This document shows positions 8,648-43,570 of a stretch of 45,489 nt of DNA, piece after piece. The translations under genes and the position numbers were made by a program. A model generated the notes under the pieces. That model was not told where the DNA came from and ran no database searches. It worked only from the letters and a program-made list of their open reading frames with translations. This DNA comes from Atractiella rhizophila (taxonomy: Eukaryota): contig MU271283.1 in NCBI GenBank assembly GCA_021432655.1, forward strand, positions 62,001 through 107,489, written 5' to 3'. Each line of letters starts with the position of its first letter. Position 1 is the stretch's first letter.

Positions 8648-9676
8648 CTAATCGAGACGTGCCAGCGAAACTGAATGTACACTTCCAACGGTCGAGAGGG
8701 TACTGAAAGTAGGACCCGAAGCAAATTCAACGCGAATGATAAGCTCTGTGCCTCCTCCTTCGCCCTCCTGGATGATTTCTGGCTTCGTTTCGAGTCCGAT
8801 TGTCTTTCTCGGTTTTGGTGACGACCTGAGCTGTGCACAACGAGAATAAATTAATGACCTCGTCTCACATCTGAGGGAGAAACAAACCTCCGTGAGCCGT
8901 AAGATCGATAGCGTGTGGACGCCACTTTCCGTCAGTGTCGTCTTTGATTTGGAGAGTGTATTCAACTCGCGAATCAACTGGGTAGTCAAGGAAGAAACCT
9001 TCTTTCAACGCGTTTACTGAAGAGCGAGGTTGTGCAATGCTGTCGTAATGAAAGAAGACTGAAACCAGCAAATCATTCAGTATTGGGGCCAATGAGAGAA
9101 TCAAGGACATTGCGTACCCTGTTCTTTCACCAACATGGAATTCACGCCTCCCAGCTCTCCCTCGTCTCTTATGAATCCGTATCCCGTCCTCATAGAATAA
9201 CTGACTACCTTTCCCTCTCGTCTCTTCATCCCTATTATCTCCTCCCCTCCATTGACCGGAGTCCTCCGTGCCACCACATCTTCCCAAGTCTTTTTTCTTG
9301 TCCTCAATTGCCAAGGGAGTAGCCAGCGCGGCATAGTTCTCGTTCGACTCGGTCGTTGTGGTCCAATGAACTCTTCTTGCGGTTCATCTGTGACCACAGT
9401 GCAGAGGGATGTAGGGGAAGGAGGCTGTGGGCGGAATGGAGGGGGTAAGCGTCGGCGGACAGCGAGGAGGGCGGAAGAGAGGCGAGAGTTGATATTGGAG
9501 ATATTGGAGATATTGAGGATAGGGTAAGGGTCCGTCTGGGACTTCGGGAGGGACATGTGGGATATGGTGCTGTAGGAGGAAGTTTGGGTAGAGGTGCTGG
9601 AGTCGTAGGTGGTTGTTGATGGTGAGATAGAGAGCGTTGTCGCAAGCACGAGAGGGTTGCGATGTGGTGAGACCAT
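8648..9676 (-). CDS. Cold-shock domain (CSD/OB-fold) protein with a low-complexity N-terminus
   Basis: Removing the 59-nt GTACGC...TTCAG intron (9117-9059) gives REGKVVSYSMRTGYGFIRDEGELGG...KEQVFFHYDSI...RVEYTL...GKWRPHAIDLTAHGG, containing RNP1-like GYGFI, RNP2-like VFFHY and a CSD-type C-terminal strand. The start may be 9676 or 9556; the last exon frame is uncertain (stop at 8648 or 8578). Confidence 0.75.
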
Positions 9677-10560
9677 ATATAAGAATCTTATAAAAGGGGT
9701 GGTCTGCGAATGTCAGGCGAACCGCCGGGTCTCAAAGTAAATCGCCCTTTGGCTGTCCAATTGAATGGTCAATGTCCTTCGGGATGTTCCTCAAGTTCCA
9801 GTTTGCTGGCCGAAGTGCTGAATTTGGCTGAATCGTGCAGAAGAAAGTGGTTCTCGAGGAGAGAAAGAATTTCTGGAAGATCAGAAGAGTATATATATTA
9901 CTCTTCGTTCAACTGGTACAAGGACTCCGCACCTCTGCCTCCAATAGTCAATCCTGATGGATAGTACCAAAACGGCGGGCTGTGGCGGGGTACGTATTGA
10001 CGCGGATGAGTAGAGGAGGGCGGAAGAGAGGCGAGAGTTGATATTGGAGATATTGGAGATATTGAGGATAGGGTAAGGGTCCGTCTGGGACTTCGGGAGG
10101 GACATGTGGGATATGGTGCTGTAGGAGGAAGTTTGGGTAGAGGTGCTGGAGTCGTAGGTGGTTGTTGATGGTGAGATAGAGAGCGTTGTCGCAAGCACGA
10201 GAGGGTTGCGATGTGGTGAGACCATATATAAGAATCTTATAAAAGGGGTGGTCTGCGAATGTCAGGCGAACCGCCGGGTCTCAAAGTAAATCGCCCTTTG
10301 GCTGTCCAATTGAATGGTCAATGTCCTTCGGGATGTTCCTCAAGTTCCAGTTCGCTGGCCGAAGTGCTGAATTTGGCTGAATCGTGCAGAAGAAAGTGGT
10401 TCTCGAGGAGAGAAAGAATTTCTGGAAGATCAGAAGAGTATATATATTACTCTTCGTTCAACCGGTACAAGGACTCCACTCCTCTGCCTCCAATAGTCAA
10501 TCCTGATGGATAGTACCAAAACGGCGGGCTGTGGCGGGGTACGTATTGACGCGGATGAGT
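9464..10560. repeat. Direct tandem duplication: 548 bp (9464-10011), one A (10012), 548 bp (10013-10560)
   Basis: Copies align at offset 549 with only a few substitutions (agtttgctgg/agttcgctgg, aactggtac/aaccggtac, ccgcacct/ccactcct). It covers the promoter and 5' end of the CSD gene. Confidence 0.97.
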
Positions 10561-12369: not shown

Positions 12370-16726
<4,357 letters not shown>

Positions 16727-17550: not shown

Positions 17551-20500
17551 ATGTTTGAGCAGTCAATCTCAGGACTTATAAAATCGCTACGAGCGGTAAA
17601 GAATGACCCAGCTGGAGAGATTAAGGTGATAGAGAGCGCGAAAAGAGACATAGCAGTAGAGGTAGCAAGTACTGATCGGGATTTGAAGTGTGATGCTATG
17701 CTCAAAGCTATCTATGTAAGTGCTTCTCCAAATCACGAAGTAAGGTCTTTTGGATGTCAGAACACGCTGGCCAGGAGGTCTGATGTGGGAGCTGTTTCTC
17801 TATGACCTACATAAACGGATGGCGGACTAAGGTGTCCAGTTGAGAGCCACCTCACTGTCCAAGGAGAGTTTCTCGCACTTGCTCCCTCTGCGCTCTATGA
17901 GATTATCCGGTGTAAAGGTGTGAAAGTTTGACGGTCCCCATTTCCACTACTTTGGCATGATACTTATCCAATGAGACCCATTCAAGCGAGTTTTGCTGAT
18001 CCTTTCTTCCAGCTTGACATGCTTGGACATCGCACATTACACCAGCATCCCTTTCAGATCATTGAACTTATGTCATCCACTGTTCCGCACCATAAGCAAA
18101 CGGGGTATCTGGCGGCTGCTCAATCCTTCACTCCGAATACTGATACGTTACTACTCGCTGCGAATTTGCTACAGAAGGATCTCTCAACTTCTTCCGGCTC
18201 GCGGACATCAATCGCTCACTTCCATACAGTCCTTTCCAACCTCCCTTCCCTCCTCTTACTAGAACCTCTTTCACCAGGCGCCCTTGGGCTGGAAGCGCCA
18301 ACGCCAGGACGGCGGTCAACCATGATATCTCCACTATTATCCCATAGTAATCCTGGCATTCGACGGCTTACAATTCTTCTGCTTCACTCGCTGAAGCCAC
18401 GAACTATACAAATTCCTATTCCCCTCCTTAAACAGCTACTGAAGGATGAGGACACGTCCGTTCAGAGCGCGACCCTCAGCCTTGTGACAGAATTGGTGCT
18501 GCATGAGGACCCAAAAGAATACCTGGACGTTGCCCCGGAGCTATTCGCCATCCTTACGACTAGCTCCAACAACTGGATCTTGATCAAAGTCGTAAAGGCG
18601 TTCGCTCCGCTTCCAGCTGTGGAACCACGACTTCTGAAGAAGCTCGGTGGACCCCTCACTAACTTGATCAGTAACACGCCCGCCACGAGCTTGCTGTTCG
18701 AGTGCATAAGGACCTGCATCGACTGTGGTCTCATTGGTTAGCCTTTTCTCGCTTGTGCCAACGAGCTAACACATATGACTCGGTAGACGAAAACAATTCT
18801 GATGTTGTAGGCGCTTCTGCCTCATCGACTCTTGCACGAACCTGCATCGACAAGTTGGGCTCCTTCCTCCAATCCGGCGACCAGAACCTACGCTATATTT
18901 CCCTCGTGGCCTTGTCCAAAGTCCTCCGTTCTCACTCTCACCTTGTTGCACGACATCACTCCACCATTCTTTCCCTCATCGACGATCCTGACTCTACTAT
19001 TCGTTTACGCGCTCTCGATCTATTAGGAGGGATGGCGAACAGGCAGAACTTGATGGATATCACCAAACGGCTAATGGCCCATTTTTTCCCCGCTTCTAAC
19101 GCAGCCGAGAGGTCGAGTAGTAGCGCAATCGATCTTTTGAGCAAACAGCAGATGTCACAGAGCGAGAAGCTTGTCGCCGGATCGAGCGCGAAAGGCAGCG
19201 GAATCCCTTTGGTCCTGTCACCTGGGTACCGGAGTTCCCTAATTGGCCTCATCGTCAAAATTACCTCTGCGGATTCTTATGGAAATATAACAAATTTCCA
19301 TTGGTTCATTGATGTCCTCATCGACCTGGCGTACCTTTCTCTTTCCCTCTCCAACCTTTCGAGTAACGAATCCGGTGGTGAGAGCGTGAGTGAGAAGATT
19401 GCCGCCCAGCTCGTGGATGTAACTGCGAGAGTCAAAGGATGCCGTCCCTACGCCGTGAAAAAGCTGGAGCGACTGATCGATGATGAGACGTTCCTCGAGA
19501 ATTCTGCACAATCTAATCCCTCTTCGATACTGCACGGGACAGCGAGCGAGGGAGCGGAAATTTGGGAAGCAGCAGTATGGATCTGTGGAGAATATTGTAG
19601 GGATTCAGTGGCATCTCCTGATCAGACCATACGATCGATATTCAGAAAAGAGGTCTCCAATTTACCGACAAAGACTTTGACAGCAGTCGCGCATAATGGT
19701 ATCAAACTTATTGGAAAGTGGTTGGAAGCACTTGGAAATGGGGATCAATGGAATGAAGGGGACGCAGCTAGGGTAAGGGAGGGGTTGAGTCTAGCGGTAG
19801 AGCGTTTGGAGGAGTGGAAGTCTCAGGGAGATGTGGAATTGCGCCAGAGAGTGAGTGTTCCTTTCATGTTTTCCCTTCTTGATGATGACCTTTTGCATGC
19901 AGGCGGCTGAGTATGTGGCCCTTCTCAGGCTCGTATACCAAGGTCTCGACGTGCCAAATCGACTGCAATCGCATCCATCCAGCGAGACAACTTTGTACTC
20001 TGATCTAACATCAACCTACCAACAGTCCTCATTTCCATCGGATAATGAACCTAACCCCTTCTCAATATCCACTACCAAAGAGGTATTCGGACCACCAAAG
20101 TCCCTACTCCTTCTCGGCCCGCTGTTTACATCGCACGAACTGCCTCCAGTAAACGTCAAAGCACAATCTCTCATCCAAGCCCCACAAGGTTTAGACCTAG
20201 ATAGTTGGTGGTCACCTGATTCCGAGCTACTCAATCCGTCAAAATGGGAGGAAGTAGAAGAAGTCGGGATTGAACGAGATCCATACGGTCGACCACTAGG
20301 ATTGCCCGAACCGGTAGTACAGGAAGAGGAGACGAGGGTCAAAAAGAGGAAGAAGAAGGGAAAAGAAAAGAGTACCACTGCTGAAGATGATAATAATGAG
20401 GATCTGCAGCGAGCGGCGGAAGAAGATAGGAGGAGAGAGCAGCGAGAAGAGCGGCTTCGAAGGCAGGAGGACGATCCATATTATCTTGGTGGAAAGAAGA

Positions 20501-20802
20501 AGAGGTCCCGGAAGCCCAAAGTTGGAGCAGAAGCTGATGACGTGGAATCAATTCCGGTCGTCAAACTGGATTTCAACGAACTCGTTGCTCCTTCGGCACC
20601 ACTGATGGAGATGGAAGTAGATGTCGAGGGCGAGTTACCCGAGGGTATCGAAGTCCCCCAGCCGAAACCACCAGTGGAATCTAGAGTGGAAGCGAAGGAC
20701 GCACTGGAAGGGGAACTCGATGTTGGTGTCGGAGTGAGGAAGAAGGTGGTCAAGAAAGGGAAGGGGACGAGGAAGAAGAAGATTACGAGCTCAGAAAACT
20801 AA
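17551..20802 (+). CDS. APL5: AP-3 adaptor complex delta subunit, multi-exon
   Basis: MFEQSISGLIKSLR start; LDMLG...FQIIELMSS...KQTGYLAAAQSF; SSNNWILIKVVK; EPRLLKKL; PATSLLFECI; DQNLRYISL; IRLRALDLL; AAVWICGEY; ELPPVNVKAQ...PQGLDLD; ERLRRQEDDPYYL. All are typical of delta-adaptin. Confidence 0.95.
17743..17966 (+). ncRNA. Candidate intron-encoded structured RNA (H/ACA snoRNA-like) in AP-3 delta intron 1
   Basis: The intron spans 17716-18012 (297 nt) against about 40-70 nt typical here. Stems: AGGTC(17743)/GACCT(17804), ATGTCAGA/TCTGATGT and CGGAT(17816)/ATCCG(17905). An ANANNA H-box match (ACATAA, 17809-17814) follows hairpin 1 directly. Only an ATA variant, not ACA, follows the last hairpin. 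Confidence 0.45.
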
Positions 20803-20959: not shown

Positions 20960-22342
20960 TTAATTATTATGAGACGTAGACGGAATCAACGTATTTGAAG
21001 GCAGGCTCTCATCCACCAACTTCTTCGCCTGGTCAACACCAACCACCGGCAACCCATTCGCATTTAAGAGGCCAAGCTGCATCAATACGCTTGCTTGATC
21101 CCAATAGATATGCTCGTTATAAAGTTTATCTCCTCTGATACAAACGATAGCGACCAGTGGCACCGACATCTATCCAAACCATTCATTGATGTTGGTCAGT
21201 TTCCTGCCACAGTTTGCTATTTCGGTTCAAGACGGCAACGTACTGGTTTACCAGTCGGGGCAACTCCAGGAAGCATCCAAGGGACTTCTTCGCTGTGCGT
21301 GAACGAAAAGATCATCTCATCTACCAACCTGTCACCGCCTATAGTTCGCGAGACGAGTGTGATCTGGGTATCCGGGGGGTTAGAGAAGATGAAATGATCC
21401 CTGTAGAATGCGGTGAGTCTCTCTCTCCCAACCCCACCTGTCATCTACAGCTAATAGTCACATTAAGTCAAACCTCTCGAACAAATGGACCAACTGTGGG
21501 TATATGATTGACGTATGGTTCCTCAACCATTGTATTCATGGTTTCCTCCACCGCTCTGTCGGAGAACTCGTACAAGATATGTTCCTCCCACACCTTCTCT
21601 AGATCGAAATAAGGGCCGCCGACATGCCTTTTGACAAAATCGAGAGAGCGAGAGTGAGCGATAGAAGAGGACGAGCGGTCATAGGTTGACAGAATTGAAG
21701 GTATCATAAATGTTGTCGAGTTTGTGGGATATGTGTACACTCGTTGAAGCCAACCTGTGGCCGGCGACGGCGGAGAGGATAAAGATGGAATATGAGCAAG
21801 CGTTGGATAAGAACTAGAGAGTAATGGCGCAAGTTCCGGTGCGTAAAGGACTCGTGGTCCCGTCGACACTATTGCCGTACACGATCAACATCTCTTGCAT
21901 GCTATTGCGACAGAAAATGGCGAACAGCTGTTGTTCAAACTGGACACATGAGCACAAGCCAGAGATCCATATGCTGTTTCATTTCTACTCAGTATAGGGA
22001 TATTAAGCGAAAGGAATATATGTACCGATCATTGCAATAGGCATCTTGCCATCAGTTTTCTCTTCTGCCTTCAGCAATCCCACCGCCTCCTCGACCACAC
22101 CTTTCATCTTCTCCATGGCACGATTTGTGCACAAGATAGAAGCAACAGCGAATCCCTTTCCTATAGTTTAGAAAGCAAATGATAGGACTGTAACTGACCT
22201 CTTCAGCCCACTTTTGTGGTGGCAGCGGTTCTAGCACTCCCTGTAACAATTCTTTTGAAGGCAGAGGTTCAGATAATAATATTATCAACCCAGGTCCGAT
22301 CCCCAATCTCGTTAATGGCATTTGCAAGGCGATTTCATCCAT
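20960..22342 (-). CDS. Fungal SnoaL-like/NTF2-fold protein (family usually annotated as carboxymethylenebutenolidase / dienelactone hydrolase), multi-exon
   Basis: GPYFDLEKVWEEHILYEF...ETMNTMVEEPYVNHIPT / MTGGVGRERLTAFYRDHFIFSNPPD...LVSRTIGGDRLVDEMIF...WMLPGVAPTGK / VPLVAIVCIRGDKLYNEHIYWDQASVLMQLGLL; N-terminal GPGLIILL...PPQKWAEE. Confidence 0.88.
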
Positions 22343-22957
22343 CGTGCTCAGAGTTGTCAGCCCACAAATGTCTGCGGTAACAACAGCTGTATTCAGCGAC
22401 AATTCACGGAAAAGACGAGACTTACCGCTCTTGTCTCATTCAACATCGGATCTTACAACCCTGTGAGCTTTATCAAATAACTAGTTATCAAATACATAAA
22501 CATGGAGCTTGAAGTCCATTTGGATATCACGTGAGGCACACACCAGCCTTCCCTCCAAAATACTACCTCAATTCGCAATCAGTACTTTGAACGGCGTGAT
22601 ATTAAACGTATCCTTTCTGGACTGACTTGAGTTGGAGTGTAACTTGTGCTCGGCTTAAGCAAATGTTGAGAGGTGCTCTAGCATAATTTGACAACCTGTC
22701 TCTGGGGAAAAACGAATCGGAAGGTATGGTTGTAGAATCCGGTAAGTTCTTGATTCTGCTATGAAACAGTCCTACTGGCGGGTGTTACTGGCGATGTGGA
22801 CGTGCAGTGCTCGTAAAAGCCGCTTCAATAGAAGTCTGCCTTGAAGTCCTGGCATCAGTCACGTGATCCAAACAATTTGGGTTACCAACTTCTTCCTTGA
22901 TTGCGTTGCAGTCTCGGTTCTCCATATCCTGATGCAACTTTTATTGTCTTAAATGCT
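22343..22957. promoter_or_regulatory. Divergent promoter region with two TCACGTGA palindromes (CACGTG 22528-22533 and 22860-22865)
   Basis: One full 8-bp palindrome lies near each of the two head-to-head genes. Confidence 0.45.
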
Positions 22958-25900
22958 ATGTTAACCTTTTATTCAGGCACGACAATCACGATTTCGGACA
23001 GTGATACAGACAGCGACAGTATCATTTTCGCAGGCGCATCCAGCCTCAAAGCTACTTCTAAACCTCTTGCTCCAACCGCTACCACATCGACCAATCCATT
23101 CTACTCTGCGCAGGTTCTGCGACCCACTTCACCCTCGACTTCTCGCTCCAATGTATGCGTACAGTCGTCAACTTCAAAACCGCCATCGACCTCAGTGTCT
23201 GCTACTTCCAACCCTCACCTAATACGCTCAAACTTTGGGGCGTCGACGTCACGGATACGAGTAACTTGCGACTCCAGATCCAATGTGAATATGAAGGGAT
23301 CCAATATCGTTCAATCTGCTGAACAGAATCCTGTTGGTCCGTCTGCATTGAAACATGGATTCCAGTCCATCGCGAGAAAGAATCTCGTACTCATCGACCT
23401 AGATGAAAGCAGTAGTGATGAGCGTAGTGAAATTGATGGAAATAGTGGGAGAGGAAGGATGGGGGTAGGTACGTGGCGGATAACAGCTGGTGACAGGCAT
23501 GCGACATGGACGGGGAAAGTGCAGGTAAGCGCCTTCGAGAATGATTGGAAGACGCATTTGAAAGGTGGAGGGACAGGAACGACCGAGCGGTGCGGAGGAC
23601 GAATTGGAGCAGGAAACCAAAGCCGATGTCATAGAGATTTCGGATGAGGGAGAGGACTGTCAGGAGCCGGATGAGGATGACGACGAACTGCGATATATCC
23701 CAAAGAAAAAGTTTCGTCGTCATGAGAAAACTACGCCGTATCAGAGGCAAGTGCGTTGCAGACCGGGCCCCTGTGCGCTTGTCATACTAACCTTGACCCA
23801 GATATCGATCTCAGAACACACCGCAAGACGCGATTGCTCCCCTTCCACCTTCCTCAACAACATCTTCTCGACCCCCTCCCTCCTCAGCTCACGACCACGT
23901 AGCCTCCATGTCGGGAATTCAACAGGTGTCGAAACGAGAGAATCTACATTTCGATCTCGAATGTCATCTATATCCGCTCGCTCAGACACTACTTCGATTG
24001 TGAGCAACTCCAGCCGTTTTTCTAATCGAGGTTTTCGACAACTTGGTGCTTCCTTCATGCTCTCGGCCGTCGCGAAGGCAGATTCCAAAGGAAGACCTCC
24101 TTCTGTTAGCTTGGCTTCAGAAAGAGCTGATCCTCTCCCGAACCAGATGTTCAGTGGCAGCTTAGATGCGAGCCAAATGGACACAGACGGGGGTTCAGAC
24201 AGAAAGGGAGGAGTGGAAGACCTGGACGAATTTGACCACGACGGCTTCTTGAAGTTGACGAATATCCAAAACGTCGATTCTCGCTTTCATCCTGTACAAT
24301 GGAAGCCGATAGAAAACACACCTAGTTTAGACCAGTCTCTTCCTGAAAGTGTTAAACCACTTGAGTTTGATCAGGATAGAGGTGCTGGGGCAGCACAGTT
24401 TCACAATGAGGATAGATCTTTTGAACATGAAGCACTGGGAAATAAAATGATGGATGGGGGACTTGGCTCTTCGAAGTTGTCATTGCCAAGGGCTTCCAAC
24501 ACTCAGTCTTACGTGCCATCAGCGGACGATGTCGAGATGACAGCTTCAGACTCCCGTGTAGGGAGGACCCCAGTCGCCCCTTCTTCCGTGACAGTAGGGG
24601 ACGTACTTTTGCCAGTCAGAGACGCTATCGAATTATTGCGTGAGGGATTGACCATGGGCGACGTGGGGCATCTTTACAGGTTGTCGCTGCAGAAAGTGGG
24701 TAACCACATTCACGAGTGCGCGAAGGAGAAAGAAAAGGACACCCGACGACGTTATCGATGGATTCTTTGGCAAACTGTTATTCCGGCAGATCAATTTGGC
24801 ACAGCGAAGTGGGAGAATGTGATGCATTCGTCCGTCCTATCTACTTTCCTTCTCCCTTTCTGAAAGAATACTAAGCTAGCCATTAGGTACAAACAATTGA
24901 TCAGATTCGGTAATCGTCCTCCTCAGCGTTCTGGTGTCCTGGTTCCTTCGCAGCCAATCAGAAAAGTCGATCCGTCACCGCCTATTATAGACGAGCTAAA
25001 GCCCATAAAGAAGCACGCTGCTTTGCGACGACGGGAAGAGAGGCTTCAGGAAAAAGAAAAAGCAGAAAAGATCAAAAGACAGGCTGAGAAGGAGGAACGA
25101 GTGCGGAAGAAGGAGAAGAAGAGACGCAAGAAGGACCGTCTTCGTGCAGAGCTTGGGAAGACTCCGATCCAAAAGTCTGAAGAGTCTTCCGTGTGCCTCT
25201 CAGACATGACCGCCCAATGCTCTGACTCGCCCAGCAAGGGCAAGAGGGTCGGACTGATGGCGCAACGAAATGCGTCAAACCGTTCCCCGAATCTCAATTT
25301 GGAGCGACACAAGTCGCGAGAGGCGATCCTCAGGATGTCGGTCTATAGGAAGCAGGAAATTGTTTCTGAATAGCGAGAAAGAATCTCGTACTCATCGACC
25401 TAGATGAAAGCAGTAGTGATGAGCGTAGTGAAATTGATGGAAATAGTGGGAGAGGAAGGATGGGGGTAGGTACGTGGCGGATAACAGCTGGTGACAGGCA
25501 TGCGACATGGACGGGGAAAGTGCAGGTAAGCGCCTTCGAGAATGATTGGAAGACGCATTTGAAAGGTGGAGGGACAGGAACGACCGAGCGGCGCGGAGGA
25601 CGAATTGGAGCAGGAAACCAAAGCCGATGTCATAGAGATTTCGGATGAGGGAGAGGACTGTCAGGAGCCGGATGAGGATGACGACGAACTGCGATATATC
25701 CCAAAGAAAAAGTTTCGTCGTCATGAGAAAACTACGCCGTATCAGAGGCAAGTGCGTTGCAGACCTGGCCCCTGTGCGCTTGTCATACTAACCTTGACCC
25801 AGATATCGATCTCAGAACACACCGTAAGACGCGATTGCTCCCCTTCCACCTTCCTCAACAACATCTTCTCGACCCCCTCCCTCCTCAGCTCGCGACCACG

Positions 25901-28467
25901 CAGCCTCCATGTCGGGAATTCAACAGGTGTCGAAACGAGAGAATCTACATTTCGATCTCGAATGTCATCTATATCCGCTCGCTCAGACACTACTTCGATT
26001 GCGAGCAACTCCAGCCGTTTTTCTAATCGAGGTTTTCGACAACTTGGTGCATCCTTGATGCTCTCGGCCGTCGCGAAGGCAGATTTCAAAGGAAGACCTC
26101 CTTCTGTTAGCTTGGCTTCAGAAAGAGCTGATCCTCTCCCGAACCAGATGTTCAGTGGCAGCTTAGATGCGAGCCAAATGGACACAGACGGGGGTTCAGA
26201 CAGAAAGGGAGGAATGGAAGACCCCGACGAATTTGACCACGACGGCTTTTTGAAGTTGAGGAATATCCAAAACGTCGATTCTCGCTTTCATCCTGTACAA
26301 TGGAAGCCGATAGAAAACTCACCTAGTTTAGACCAGTCTCTTCCTGAAAGTGTTAAACCACTTGAGTTTGATCAGGATAGAAGTGCTGGGGCAACACAGT
26401 TTCACAGTGAGGATAGATCTCTTGAACATGAAGCACTGGGAAATAAAATGATGGATGGGGGACTTGGCTCTTCGAAGTTGTCATTGCCAAGGGCTTCCAA
26501 CACTCAGTCTTACGTGCCATCAGCGGACGATGTCGAGATGACAGCTTCAGACTCCCGTGTAGGGAGGACCCCAGTCGCCCCTTCTTCCGTGACAGTAGGG
26601 GACGTACTTTTGCCAGTCAGAGACGCTATCGAATTATTGCGTGAGGGATTGACCATGGGCGACGTGGGGCATCTTTACAGGTTGTCGCTGCAGAAAGTGG
26701 GTAACCACATTCACGAGTGCGCGAAGGAGAAAGAAAAGGACACCCGACGACGTTATCGATGGATTCTTTGGCAAACTGTTATTCCGGCAGATCAATTTGG
26801 CACAGCGAAGTGGGAGAATGTGATGCATTCGTCCGTCCTATCTACTTTCCTTCTCCCTTTCTGAAAGAATACTAAGCTAGCCATTAGGTACAAACAATTG
26901 ATCAGATTCGGTAATCGTCCTCCTCAGCGTTCTGGTGTCCTGGTTCCTTCGCAGCCAATCAGAAAAGTCGATCCGTCACCGCCTATTATAGACGAGCTAA
27001 AGCCCATAAAGAAGCACGCTGCTTTGCGACGACGGGAAGAGAGGCTTCAGGAAAAAGAAAAAGCAGAAAAGATCAAAAGACAGGCTGAGAAGGAGGAACG
27101 AGTGCGGAAGAAGGAGAAGAAGAGACGCAAGAAGGACCGTCTTCGTGCAGAGCTTGGGAAGACTCCGATCCAAAAGTCTGAAGAGTCTTCCGTGTGCCTC
27201 TCAGACATGACCGCCCAATGCTCTGACTCGCCCAGCAAGGGCAAGAGGGTCGGACTGATGGCGCAACGAAATGCGTCAAACCGTTCCCCGAATCTCAATT
27301 TGGAGCGACACAAGTCGCGAGAGGCGATCCTCAGGATGTCGGTCTATAGGAAGCAGGAAATTGTTTCTGAATTTGATGGAGAATACCTCGATGCTGTGCC
27401 AGAGCCGACAGTCTACTCACAGGGCACAGACAGGTTGACAGTTGCCTGTAATGAGGAGATTGATCTCTCCCCAGGAATGCTGCAGGTAGAGCCGGAGGAA
27501 GACAAAGAGGAAGAAGGCATTGCGCAAATCAGCAGTCAGTTGCGTCGACAACTACGACTTAATCTCGACTCAAAGGTCGAGGACTTACAGCAAACTTTAG
27601 GTCGGCTATCTTCTTCTGAGCAAGAGTCCACTTAACGGAACGCTTTAGAGTCAAATCTACAAATCGGAGATGTGACGCCAGAACTCCACAACCAGAGACG
27701 CTTGAGTTATCCATATCAGGAAGTGCTCGACCGTGGTCCATTCTGGTTGGCGGAGCAATTTGCTGCAATCGAGACCCGGCCAAAATTGGGTGTCCCGAAG
27801 CCAAAGCGCCGAGCAAAACATAAGGGAAAAGTTCGTGTACCAGGACCATCCTCTGGAAGATACTATCATTTTCTGGTGCGTGCAACAATCCTGACAATTG
27901 GAATGTGTCCTAACGAGTGGTCGCTGCGATAGAGTAAACAACCGATCAGGGAGGAGGACATCTCAGATTCAGATGATGATGTGAGGCAGATGGAGTGGGA
28001 TGAAGAAATGCGCAACAATGTGCGTTCCGTTCCCACTTGCTTCTCAACTTGAATTTGTCTCTGCGGCAGGGAATCTCGAATTATCCATTCGACTACCGCT
28101 ACCTCTTGGTGATGCAAATCTGGTCGCGGCATTCTCGCCGATGGGGGTACTTTCGCTACCCTTCCTATCAGTACCTCATTGATGAGTCAACAATATTAGG
28201 CACTGGTCATTCAAAAGCTTTCCTGCCGCATGCTTCGATTTCATCCACGCACACGCAGATTTCATAATAGCTCAACAGCTCGAAATTCCGGTCAGTAATC
28301 TACTGCAGAAGTTCACGAAGGAAGATCTGCTTTCTGAATGGATGGGGGACGACTTGCTCAGCTTGATTGCGGAAGGGAAAACGGAACCAGATTGGGAAAG
28401 GGAGAAGAAGCTGTTCTTGAACCGCGTTGGAAGGGAGCAGAGTCTTGAGGAAGCACATAATCGATAG
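22958..28467 (+). CDS. Large low-complexity protein with a C-terminal VEFS-box-like (SUZ12/Polycomb PRC2) domain; interrupted in this assembly by a 2-kb duplication
   Basis: Splicing introns 27876-27932, 28020-28069 and 28147-28199 gives GRYYHFLSKQPIREEDISDSDDDVRQMEWDEEMRNNGISNYPFDYRYLLVMQIWSRHSRRWGHWSFKSFPAACFDFIHAHADFIIAQQLEIPVSNLLQKFTKEDLLSEWMGDDLLSLI. Stop TAG ends at 28467. The start codon is uncertain. Confidence 0.7.
23372..27372. repeat. Direct tandem duplication: exactly 2000 bp (23372-25371), one A (25372), 2000 bp (25373-27372)
   Basis: ORFs 23565-24863 and 25566-26864 are near-identical at offset 2001. Substitutions occur only in roughly the first 1.05 kb of the unit. The junction creates a TAG stop. 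Confidence 0.98.
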
Positions 28468-28763: not shown

Positions 28764-31017
28764 TCACCTAACAGATTCATTATCCTCCGCCTCTCTCTTC
28801 CTGTGTCTCCTCGATCCCCCTCTCTGTTCTCGTCGCTCCTCATCCCGCTCTCTTTTCTCTCTTTCCCTCTTCTCCTTCTCTTTTATTTCAAAGAAGTCCA
28901 ACTCTTCGCTCTTCTCCCTCTCCTTGCGACTCTTGTCTTTCTCTCTATCTCCCCTGCCCGACCTTCTCGATTCTGATTTCTTTTCTTCCCGATCACGATC
29001 CCTTTCTGGGCTCCTGCTCCTGCTCCTCCGGTCAGAACGATCTCGCTCGCGCTCATCGATTGAGTCCCGCTTTGGACCAGTTGGAGGAGCACCTCCGCGA
29101 GTTCCCGCAGGACCGCGAGGAGGTCCACCAGGCATATGTCGAGGACCCGTGGGAACACCAGGCGGGAGAGGGGATGGAGGACGAGGTGCAGCAACTGGAG
29201 CAAGCGGCGTACCGCGCCCACGCCCGCGTCCCGATGGCCCGGAAGGTGGCATGCCTCTACCTCGAGCAGGCATGCCTCGCCCTCTTCCTTCAAATGATGC
29301 ATTCGGATCCTGTGTACTTCGTTAGATAATAAGATGAAAGAAGAGAGAAAGCGTACGTCGTCCATATATTGTCCGTTCATTCCATTTATTATTGATGGCT
29401 CCTCGCTCTCCCCTCTCATCCCGGGAGTACCTTCATCAAAGCTCCTCTCATCCATCATGCCATTTCCAAAGGCAGCACCGCCGCCTGCTCCAGGCATGCC
29501 CATCATCCCTCCTCCCATGTTCATTCCTTGATTCATCATCATCTGTGGATTCATATTCATCCCCATGCCGCCCATCATCCCCATCATTCCACCAGGTCCA
29601 TTTGCATTTGGCCCAGCATTCGGTGGTCCATTGCCGGCCGACATGTTCATGATCATTTGTTGAAATGCAGGATTGGACAGCTGAACGAAGATTTGGGGCG
29701 GATAGCCAGAGGCGGAGAGGATGGTGCTAAGCATGAGGGTTTTGAGAGGAGCAGGGAGGGAAAGATAGGCTTCTCGGACGTTCCCAAACGCAAATGCCTA
29801 TCAGTTAAATTTTATCTCGCAAGTCAGCCAACTCCCCTCAGAACCGAGGCAGAGGAAGGACGCACAGCAAAAGGCATCTCCTCCTTAAAAGTGAGTGGTT
29901 TCCCTCCTCCTTCCCCACCACGCTGTTTGGGAGGCTCGGTTCTACCCTCTCCATACTTCTGCCTGAGTCTATACACTTTCCAATCGCGCTCATCAAAACC
30001 ATAGTTGAAATAATCGCTCTGATTGGCACCGCTCGCTCTCCAAGGAGCCTGTTCATTCGTCAATTTGTCAAGGTCATCGAGGTCCATCAATCCCTCTTCT
30101 CTCTCCGGGAGAGGTTCGAGTGGCACGGCAGGTGGAGAAGGTGGAGGAAAAGAAACAACCTCGCGTTGTGTGATGAGGATGTCAGACGGTGTAGGAGGGA
30201 GAGGGAACGTGAATGGTGCTCGTGTTTGTTGAGATAGTTGTGAGGAGGAAGCTTGCGTGGTAGCAGGTTGATTCACAGCTAAGGAGGCATTTCGAGCGTG
30301 AGGCGTGTACTCCGTAGTCGATAACGATTGTGATGGCTTCTCGCCTGCAGGCGCCGCTGTCGTCACAGTGGTCGTCGCCGTCGCCGCCGCTGGGGCTTGC
30401 ACAGAAAGAACTCGATTCCTGCACGCAAGAACAATGTTGGTTTGTTCTTCAACTCTAGAGGCCAATGTGCTCACACTGAGGGACGCGCTGGCGCTTTCGC
30501 TTCGGCGGTGTTATTTAACACGATTTCGATTTCCTTGACAGAATGAAGAGGGAAAGTTAGGTTCCATTGCATCGGGTTTTATTCTAGGGAGAGGAAATAC
30601 AGAAAAAGAATAACATTCTCATCCTGAGGTTGCGACCTCCCCTGTATCTCATTCTGTTCGCCTTCCATAACAGCTTGCCAAATTTACACGCAAGCAGCAG
30701 CACTTCCCAGCATCCACATCCGCTTCCGTGAAAATAAATAAAAAACGTACATCTTCGGACTCCTCTTGTACCTCCTCCGCTTCTGCCCCTTCTTCTGCGT
30801 CTTCTTCCATAGCGCTCCCTTCTTCCTCTGTACCGCCATCCACAGGTGCGTTTCTGCAGCAAACACATGAGCCAAATCACTCTGAACTTGGACAAACGGC
30901 TAATGCATACAGGAAGTCAGCCAAGGCCGCTTTCTCAGTGCCGGTCACTACCGGGGCAGCAGCAGATTGAGGAGCATCCTCTGAGTTACCGTACAGAAAG
31001 GCATCTTCGTCGTCCAT
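28764..31017 (-). CDS. FIP1: Pre-mRNA polyadenylation factor Fip1, multi-exon
   Basis: MDDEDAFLYG start; acidic ...ESED/EIEIVL; Fip1 motif MDLDDLDKLTNEQAPWRASGANQSDYFNYGFDERDWKVYRLRQ; Met/Gly-rich middle; PTGP repeats; RS/RD/RE-rich tail. Confidence 0.95.
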
Positions 31018-42169: not shown

Positions 42170-43570
42170 TCAAAGTCTCTTCAATCCCGTTCTCCGCTTA
42201 ATGACCGGTCGCAAGCCACCGATGACTCCTCCGTCCCTCCTTTCCTTCTTCAAAGCATCCGAACCACCCACCGCATCCACAAGCGTGCTAGTTAACGTCC
42301 TCTTCCTTCCCGTTCCATTCCCCACAAGTCCAGCTATGACGGTGACATTGGACATCGAAGCAGTATCCGTCATCTCCACATCCTCTCCTCCCTTTGCAAC
42401 CGGTTCTTGACTTGGGAAGGTAGACGTGTTTTCTTGACCCGGAGTTGCAACGGCAGAGGTTGGAAATGAAGAGTTGACAGGGGAGGGTATGGGAGTGAAG
42501 CCACCGGACGGTGGCCGGATAGGTACTGAAGGAGCGTTCGACAAGCCGTCCGTCTCTGATTCTGACGTGCCTATCCCATTCCCGGCTGGAGCGACGAGAG
42601 GTTGTCCAGAAGTTGAACGTTCCCGTCGCCTCATGGTTGAAATGGGTGATGAAGCACCGTTTTCGATGGATGTTGTGAGAGATAGGGAGGTGGGAGCATC
42701 TTTGGGTAATGGTGGGAAGGGGATGGGAGATGCGCCGCGCTTCTTCTTGTGAGATGTTGGGGGTGGGACTAAAGGAGCTATGCTTGTACTTGTTGCCGGC
42801 ATCGAACTGGTTGCTGATGTGGAAGCGGAGGTGGAAGCTGAAGCAGATGTAGACGTATCTACACGATCCTTGACTCGACGAAACTCGACCGGTTTCTCCT
42901 TCGGGATCGCGTTGATGCTCGTAAACATCCTCGCTCTACCGACGAAAGCGTCCCAGTCTTCGAGCATGAGTCTGCCCGCATCTTCGTTGAGCGCCGATTC
43001 CGCATTGGGGCAGAACATCAGGCCCTTGATGTTTATGAGCACGTCTGCAATCGTGAGCGTAGACTTCCAGTCCTTCTTCAACGTCGAGACGCATATCGCT
43101 CCATCGGATGGAGAGACATTGGGGTGCATGATCTTGGTCCGGAAGAACCCTGTCAGATTAAGGTAAGTAGAAATTCATTCAACATGGAGGCAAGGGATCG
43201 ACTGACCTTTTGGAGGAGCGGCTGGAAAGTCGTCTCCGAATTGGAATGATATTTTGAAGAAGCCACCTGTCGACATGCAAAAAAGGCATGAGCAGGGATT
43301 TCCACATCCAAACCCAACACGGCACATTTTGCTTCTTCAACAAAGAACGGTGCGCACCTTCGTAAGCCGTTCCTTTGGGCCCTTCCACCCAACACAACAC
43401 GTCCTCCCCCAGATTCTCATCCCATCCGTCACACACCCTTATACCCTCTGAAGGAGCGCGAGCGAGGTTGGTGAGATCACGAGCTATCTTCTTCAGCGCT
43501 GCTGCAGTTGGCTGCGTTCCGTCGATCGTCAGGTCCTAACTCAGCTGTAAAGCATAAAAACACGGACCAT
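42170..43570 (-). CDS. UBE2S: Ubiquitin-conjugating enzyme E2, UBE2S-like; first coding exon is the ATG only
   Basis: ATG|intron|PTAAALKKIARDL...EGI...WVEGPKGTAYEG/G...; HPNVSPSDGAICVSTLKKDWK (active-site Cys); PNAESALNEDAGRLMLED; basic C-terminal tail KRRTGLKRL resembling the UBE2S APC/C-binding tail. Confidence 0.88.

Follow-up and report, generated by a model that had tools for sequence, protein, structure and literature searches.

SUZ12 is the least conserved of the core subunits of Polycomb repressive complex 2 (PRC2). The gene described here, a candidate for a very divergent member of this group, lies in a 45,489-nucleotide (nt) stretch of the genome of the basidiomycete Atractiella rhizophila (GenBank assembly GCA_021432655.1, contig MU271283.1, positions 62,001 to 107,489, forward strand), referred to below as the window and numbered from its first letter. 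An earlier note, based on the letters of the window alone, had proposed that the 3′ end of this gene hides a VEFS-box, the signature domain of SUZ12-type proteins, spread over four exons. The evidence presented here leads us to give a probability of about 0.6 to the reading that a strongly diverged VEFS-box makes up the C-terminal ~125 residues of the predicted protein (residues 898-1020, encoded by four exons) and that the protein is a PRC2 scaffold of the SUZ12/Bnd1 type.

The VEFS-Box is defined as a C-terminal region with an acidic cluster and, after it, a stretch rich in tryptophan and methionine; a single C2H2 zinc finger is usually located about 100 residues upstream (bioRxiv 10.1101/2021.07.16.452543). 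The VEFS motif is all that the SUZ12s of fungi have in common, and in some species even this motif is difficult to recognise (PMC7348808). The best-studied basidiomycete complex has long been said to lack SUZ12 (PMC7348808, PMC10638273). The Cryptococcus PRC2 was listed as devoid of Suz12, with Bnd1 instead (PMC7348808, PMC8788455). In 2023, Bnd1 of Cryptococcus neoformans, at first described as a subunit with no domains, was argued to be an orthologue of SUZ12 that has diverged strongly (PMC10638273), so that the remark of the earlier note that this complex has no recognisable Suz12 is dated. A similar case is MES-3 of Caenorhabditis elegans, a PRC2 subunit long thought to be unrelated and now regarded as a diverged SUZ12 (PMC10638273). 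Genes of the E(z) type are present in several Basidiomycota (PMC9692433). Literature searches, within the accessible parts of what they returned, found no publication on a basidiomycete VEFS protein, though one may exist in print or in databases.

The gene model (Table 1) includes the introns supported by RNA and only one copy of an internal tandem duplication of 2001 base pairs (bp). It is 3141 nt long and has a single stop codon, at its end. Removal of one copy, which the earlier note had suggested, does indeed yield an open frame of 1046 residues. The start codon is inferred only, as the first ATG of the open frame; it was retained because a search for exons further upstream found no chain, and the region in question is filled by an unnamed gene on the opposite strand.

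Evidence for splicing comes from Logan contigs, which are assembled sequences and not raw reads. These derive from several runs: X3, whose nature is not on record and whose RNA origin is inferred from six GT..AG joints; X5, from another study and labelled "RNA?"; X4, a root metatranscriptome; and X1, labelled "DNA?". Coverage by X4 and X5 is limited to small parts of the stretch, and the parts they leave uncovered were not counted as evidence. Across the X3 contigs six GT..AG segments of the gene are skipped, and a single contig of 1787 nt skips all three introns of the tail. An X5 contig skips introns 2 and 3 and carries a 10-letter loose end at 27932 which corresponds to the end of the exon preceding intron 1. 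The introns are retained in X1. Expression of the gene and splicing of its tail are supported by these RNA-derived contigs. The three in-frame introns of 57, 50 and 53 nt predicted in the earlier note are therefore borne out, since the joined form is present in X3 for three of three and in X5 for two of three. All have GT..AG borders and branch sites of the CTAAC/TCAAC type. Joining segments 27636-27875, 27933-28019, 28070-28146 and 28200-28467 produces one frame, open to the terminal TAG, which includes the peptide quoted at the time.

The peptide encoded by the joined exons resembles the VEFS-box both in its general layout and in its detailed register. An acidic cluster (residues 910-919) is followed by a region in which tryptophan and methionine together make up 9.9% of residues 920-1010, compared to 2.6% elsewhere in the protein (Fisher p 0.0016), and the VEFS-like region ends 26 residues from the C-terminus. 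This is the C-terminal arrangement, acidic and then rich in W and M, of the published definition. For a more detailed comparison, the tail was aligned by eye with SUZ12 orthologue sequences from Supplementary Data 8 of PMC10638273. With several of these rows (PHYINF001598, PARATL004507 and a row containing R-Y-Y-H), the alignment needs no gap once the acidic cluster is reached. The tail and the SUZ12 rows have the same spacing of 26 residues from the acidic cluster to the M..W core and the same register downstream of the core tryptophan (W): a cysteine at W+19, a phenylalanine at W+22, leucines at W+35 and W+43 and, at W+51 to W+53, two leucines followed by a small polar residue (L-L-[S/N]). 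The H-A-D which follows the phenylalanine in the tail also occurs in one SUZ12 row. Upstream of the acidic cluster, [FY]YH and Q-P are found at offsets equal to those of the SUZ12 rows. The motif order and spacing claimed in the earlier note thus hold against both these rows and the published definition; at the level of individual conserved columns the agreement is incomplete. Homology to PF09733, the family which includes SUZ12, Su(z)12 and EMF2-VRN2-FIS2, is probable.

Two numerical tests address the likeness. A regular expression describing the VEFS-type chain of motifs, written after the peptide had been seen, was matched by none of 200,000 composition-preserving shuffles of a 150-residue segment; nor did it match when the whole protein was shuffled 20,000 times. 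In the second, a list of 20 family-conserved columns, shared by most of the SUZ12 rows, chosen from them by eye and likewise drawn up after the fact, was scored in one ungapped register anchored at W950: eight columns agree and 12 do not. When all six frames of the window were scored at their 1577 tryptophan anchors, the highest value was 7, and a score of at least 8 was obtained in three of 5000 shuffles of the protein. Judged from the sequence, the VEFS resemblance of the tail would appear to be more than chance. Differences between the assembled strain and X1 and X3 are also unevenly distributed: residues 880-1046 show one synonymous and no non-synonymous change, whereas in residues 202-872 there are 12 and 24, respectively.

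A number of observations weigh against this interpretation. Pfam searches with each of the four exons and with exons 1-2 read through intron 1 with X returned no family at E<=10, and phmmer searches of the Protein Data Bank (PDB) with exons 2, 3 and 4 and the read-through piece returned no SUZ12 chain at E<=10. These blank single-exon searches count only mildly against a VEFS-box because pieces of 25-88 residues have little power. Word-indexed searches of longer proteins with exon 4 and with a 433-residue open reading frame (ORF) identified no relative. The columns which fail include the best conserved stretch of the family, the F.D[VI]...EK preceding M..W, which is absent; in addition, the asparagine following W is replaced by serine, and most of L[RK].NF.LHL is lost. 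The Neurospora SUZ12 row in the supplement of PMC10638273 is likewise far from the consensus. In contrast to SUZ12 proteins of the animal and plant type, the gene product has no recognisable N-terminal SUZ12 lobe and no C2H2 finger ~100 residues upstream of the VEFS-like region: the pattern C..C-H..H was not found in the 1046-residue model and the exons include no zinc-finger Pfam family. The low diversity of the tail need not mean selection, since its introns do not vary between strains either. Finally, in the assembled sequence codon 752 of the frame is a stop codon, placed before the VEFS-like part. The proposal of the earlier note that the gene encodes a divergent Suz12-type subunit therefore stands on splicing and motif likeness, and is weakened by the blank Pfam and PDB searches with single exons and by the failure of 12 of the 20 columns.

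It is possible, if somewhat doubtful, that the likeness arose by chance or convergence. The tail would then be a helical C-terminal domain with no relation to the VEFS-box, in a nuclear protein that is lineage-restricted and evolves fast, and its VEFS-like places would by accident hold a run of acidic residues and some aromatic ones. In favour of this, sequence and structure searches with single exons are all blank and 12 of the 20 conserved columns do not agree. Both motif tests were set up with the peptide already known, an anchor in the noise of the unspliced six frames scores as high as 7 of 20, and no orthologues were found that could reveal which positions are conserved. Chance or convergence accounts less well for the agreement of two separate blocks, the upstream trio of [FY]YH, acidic cluster and W and the downstream M..W, C..F, L and LL, in both order and spacing with the SUZ12 rows, and for the enrichment in W and M after the acidic cluster at a C-terminal position, as in the published definition.

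A second alternative retains a true VEFS-type gene and supposes that it is broken in the sequenced strain. The duplication would be genuine, and the stop codon created at the junction of its two copies would truncate the protein at residue 751, so that the VEFS-like part would not be made from the main frame. We consider this, too, possible but somewhat doubtful. The junction is clean, with two bases (AT) common to both ends, and the 20 sites at which the copies differ show that this is not a trivial exact repeat. These sites are all located within 23371-24420 (the first 1052 nt) while the last 951 nt are identical. At 15 of these sites X1 agrees with copy 1. Copy 1 is thus a mosaic whose first half fits the X1 haplotype and whose second half equals copy 2 where X1 differs, unlike what simple stacking of two alleles would give. 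On the other hand, contigs of X1 and X3 which reach 25373 lead on into the sequence that flanks copy 1 on its upstream side, so that at the left border they have the order of a single copy. The junction between the copies is spanned by no contig; this is weak evidence since contigs can collapse repeats. None of the contig runs was traced to the assembled strain itself. Two further exact local duplications occur in the same 45-kb window, a pattern that suggests assembly joins. Three duplications in one window point either to such joins or to a genome in which tandem duplication readily occurs.

In the part of the protein preceding the putative VEFS-box, the front is acidic and rich in Ser and Thr, and the middle includes a stretch rich in Lys and Glu. 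Pfam scans of the exons and ORFs of the gene gave no family above its cut-off. Together with the lack of a C2H2 finger, this fits the long unrelated N-terminus described in the earlier note. Over positions 25600-28467, the front and middle of the protein (residues 202-872) evolve fast and the tail does not. A weak similarity to the helical C-terminal domain of CHD1 (CHCT, CHD1-like_C) was detected in the middle part, at about residues 515-573. The three indications are a Pfam match to PF13907 (E 0.0022, 18.8 bits, below the gathering cut-off of 28.3), a top PDB phmmer match to 2n39_A, the CHD1 C-terminal domain (E 0.05), and a top Foldseek match, again to 2n39 (E 2.8), obtained with a model whose predicted local distance difference test (pLDDT) score is 56; all are below significance and they are not independent of one another. 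The same piece matched clusters of the helix-turn-helix type in the ESM Atlas at 0.83, which we treat as a lead. We know of no SUZ12 with a CHCT domain. One could imagine, in a Pucciniomycotina-like basidiomycete, a scaffold that keeps a readable VEFS-box but whose N-terminal lobe is entirely unlike the zinc-finger/C2/WD-binding lobe of SUZ12. That lobe would be composed of a nucleosome- or DNA-binding CHCT domain of the CHD1 type and long disordered acidic and basic tracts. Such a protein would be intermediate in sequence between canonical SUZ12 and Cryptococcus Bnd1, with a swapped PRC2 targeting lobe, but this reading is improbable.

If the tail is indeed a VEFS-box, the gene would be a new member of the SUZ12/Bnd1 group, very divergent and non-canonical in its N-terminal part. 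With the canonical family it would share the C-terminal place, the order of the acidic and W/M-rich parts, and the ungapped series formed by the upstream [FY]YH, M..W, C+19, F+22 and later leucines. With Bnd1, to which it can be likened by description only, it would share large size, a basidiomycete host, the lack of standard domains and the place that it would fill in the complex, that of SUZ12 (PMC8788455, PMC10638273). It differs from Bnd1 in that the authors of the latter study needed HHpred and AlphaFold2 to recognise the relationship, whereas here the VEFS motifs are readable by eye. The parallel with MES-3, also one of description only, concerns an animal lineage.

By analogy with solved PRC2 structures, the product, a presumed nuclear protein of ~1046 residues, could act as the SUZ12/Bnd1-type scaffold of a fungal PRC2. 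Its VEFS-like box would be positioned between an E(z)-type methyltransferase and EED and would hold the SET domain active. The long and mostly disordered N-terminal part would replace the zinc-finger/WD-binding lobe that SUZ12 has in animals and plants and, including the possible CHCT-like domain, may perhaps contact DNA or nucleosomes. Neither E(z) nor EED was present among the 12 large ORFs of the window that were scanned. From a divergent subunit with a long unrelated N-terminus the earlier note concluded that the complex for methylation of lysine 27 of histone H3 is unusual; this is not implied, since fungal SUZ12s are already known to differ widely outside the VEFS motif (PMC7348808). If confirmed, a basidiomycete gene with readable VEFS motifs would help to trace the divergence of SUZ12 into Bnd1-like proteins, would offer a handle for finding the SUZ12-type subunit in other basidiomycetes and would reveal which VEFS positions are dispensable. 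Taken alone, it is a result at the level of annotation.

Table 1. Features of the VEFS-like gene and of its surroundings (positions in the window; X3, X4 and X5 are contig runs)
Feature	Position	Strand	Remarks
Whole gene, modelled	22958..28467	+	ATG 22958, TAG 28465-28467; 1046 residues with one duplication copy removed
Duplication copy 1	23369..25369	+	20/2001 positions differ from copy 2
Duplication copy 2	25370..27370	+	Junction ...GAA/TAG (slash marks the joint) gives in-frame stop 25371-25373
Intron, 52 nt, GTAAGC..CAG	25526..25577	+	X3 contig; assignment is a reading of an ambiguous CAG
Intron, 51 nt	25752..25802	+	X3 joint 25751->25803, GT..AG
Weak CHD1 C-terminal (CHCT, CHD1-like_C)-like helical domain	26604..26780	+	About residues 515-573
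Intron, 57 nt	26831..26887	+	Joint 26830->26888 in X3 and in root metatranscriptome X4
Intron, 48 nt	27601..27648	+	Branch site TTAAC; X3 joint 27594->27643, cut +6
Exon ending G-R-Y-Y-H-F-L	27649..27875	+	RYYH at 27858-27869, residues 898-901; VEFS-like region begins
Intron 1 of the earlier note, 57 nt	27876..27932	+	X3 joint; X5 loose end
Exon with Q-P, acidic cluster and W925	27933..28019	+	DSDDD at 27966-27980, residues 915-919
Intron 2 of the earlier note, 50 nt	28020..28069	+	X3 and X5 joints
Exon with V-M-Q-I-W-S-R-H, M..W core	28070..28146	+	M947 at 28112-28114, W950 at 28121-28123
Intron 3 of the earlier note, 53 nt	28147..28199	+	X3 and X5 joints
Last exon	28200..28467	+	C969-F-D-F at 28231-28242, H-A-D, L985, L993, L1001-L-S, helical tail, stop
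Unnamed gene	21217-22435	-	Fills the region upstream of the start
AP-3 delta adaptin	17932-20802	+	Adaptin_N, E 7e-30
AGC-type kinase, C-terminal part	15584-16726	+	Neighbour
Fip1-motif protein	28883-30510	-	Convergent with the 3′ end of the gene
Ubiquitin-conjugating enzyme	42170-43174	-	Neighbour
Local duplication, 216 nt twice head to tail	14769-15200		Exact
Local duplication, 340 nt, second copy 549 nt downstream	9464-9803 = 10013-10352		Exact

Broader searches with parts of the tail returned candidates which were discarded. A phmmer search with exon 4 against 1.84 billion representative sequences gave three matches (E 1e-18 to 8e-9), all long tandem-repeat proteins aligned over 7-10 stretches, which are artefacts of summing over repeats. 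Metagenome contigs contained 363 matches to the pattern and a single locus (L001) passed tblastn, over 17 residues only; we attribute it to chance. There was no usable match to exon 4 in the ESM Atlas. AlphaFold2 modelled exon 4 alone as all-helical with a pLDDT of 57, too poor to count either way, and when this model was compared to the PDB by Foldseek, nothing matched at E<=0.001 (best E 1.6).

The neighbouring genes provide some phylogenetic context. Scans of the window for Rfam families and tRNAs returned nothing. The AP-3 delta adaptin gene has 14 protein matches at E<=1e-20, and the 13 that are named all belong to Microbotryomycetes (Pucciniomycotina), with 39-44% identity. This points, if weakly, to a basidiomycete, most likely one that has no close relatives in the collection; the lack of matches to orthologues of the VEFS-like gene agrees with this. 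Two root-metatranscriptome contigs match at an identity of at least 99%, indicating that the organism or a near-identical strain is present in those samples.

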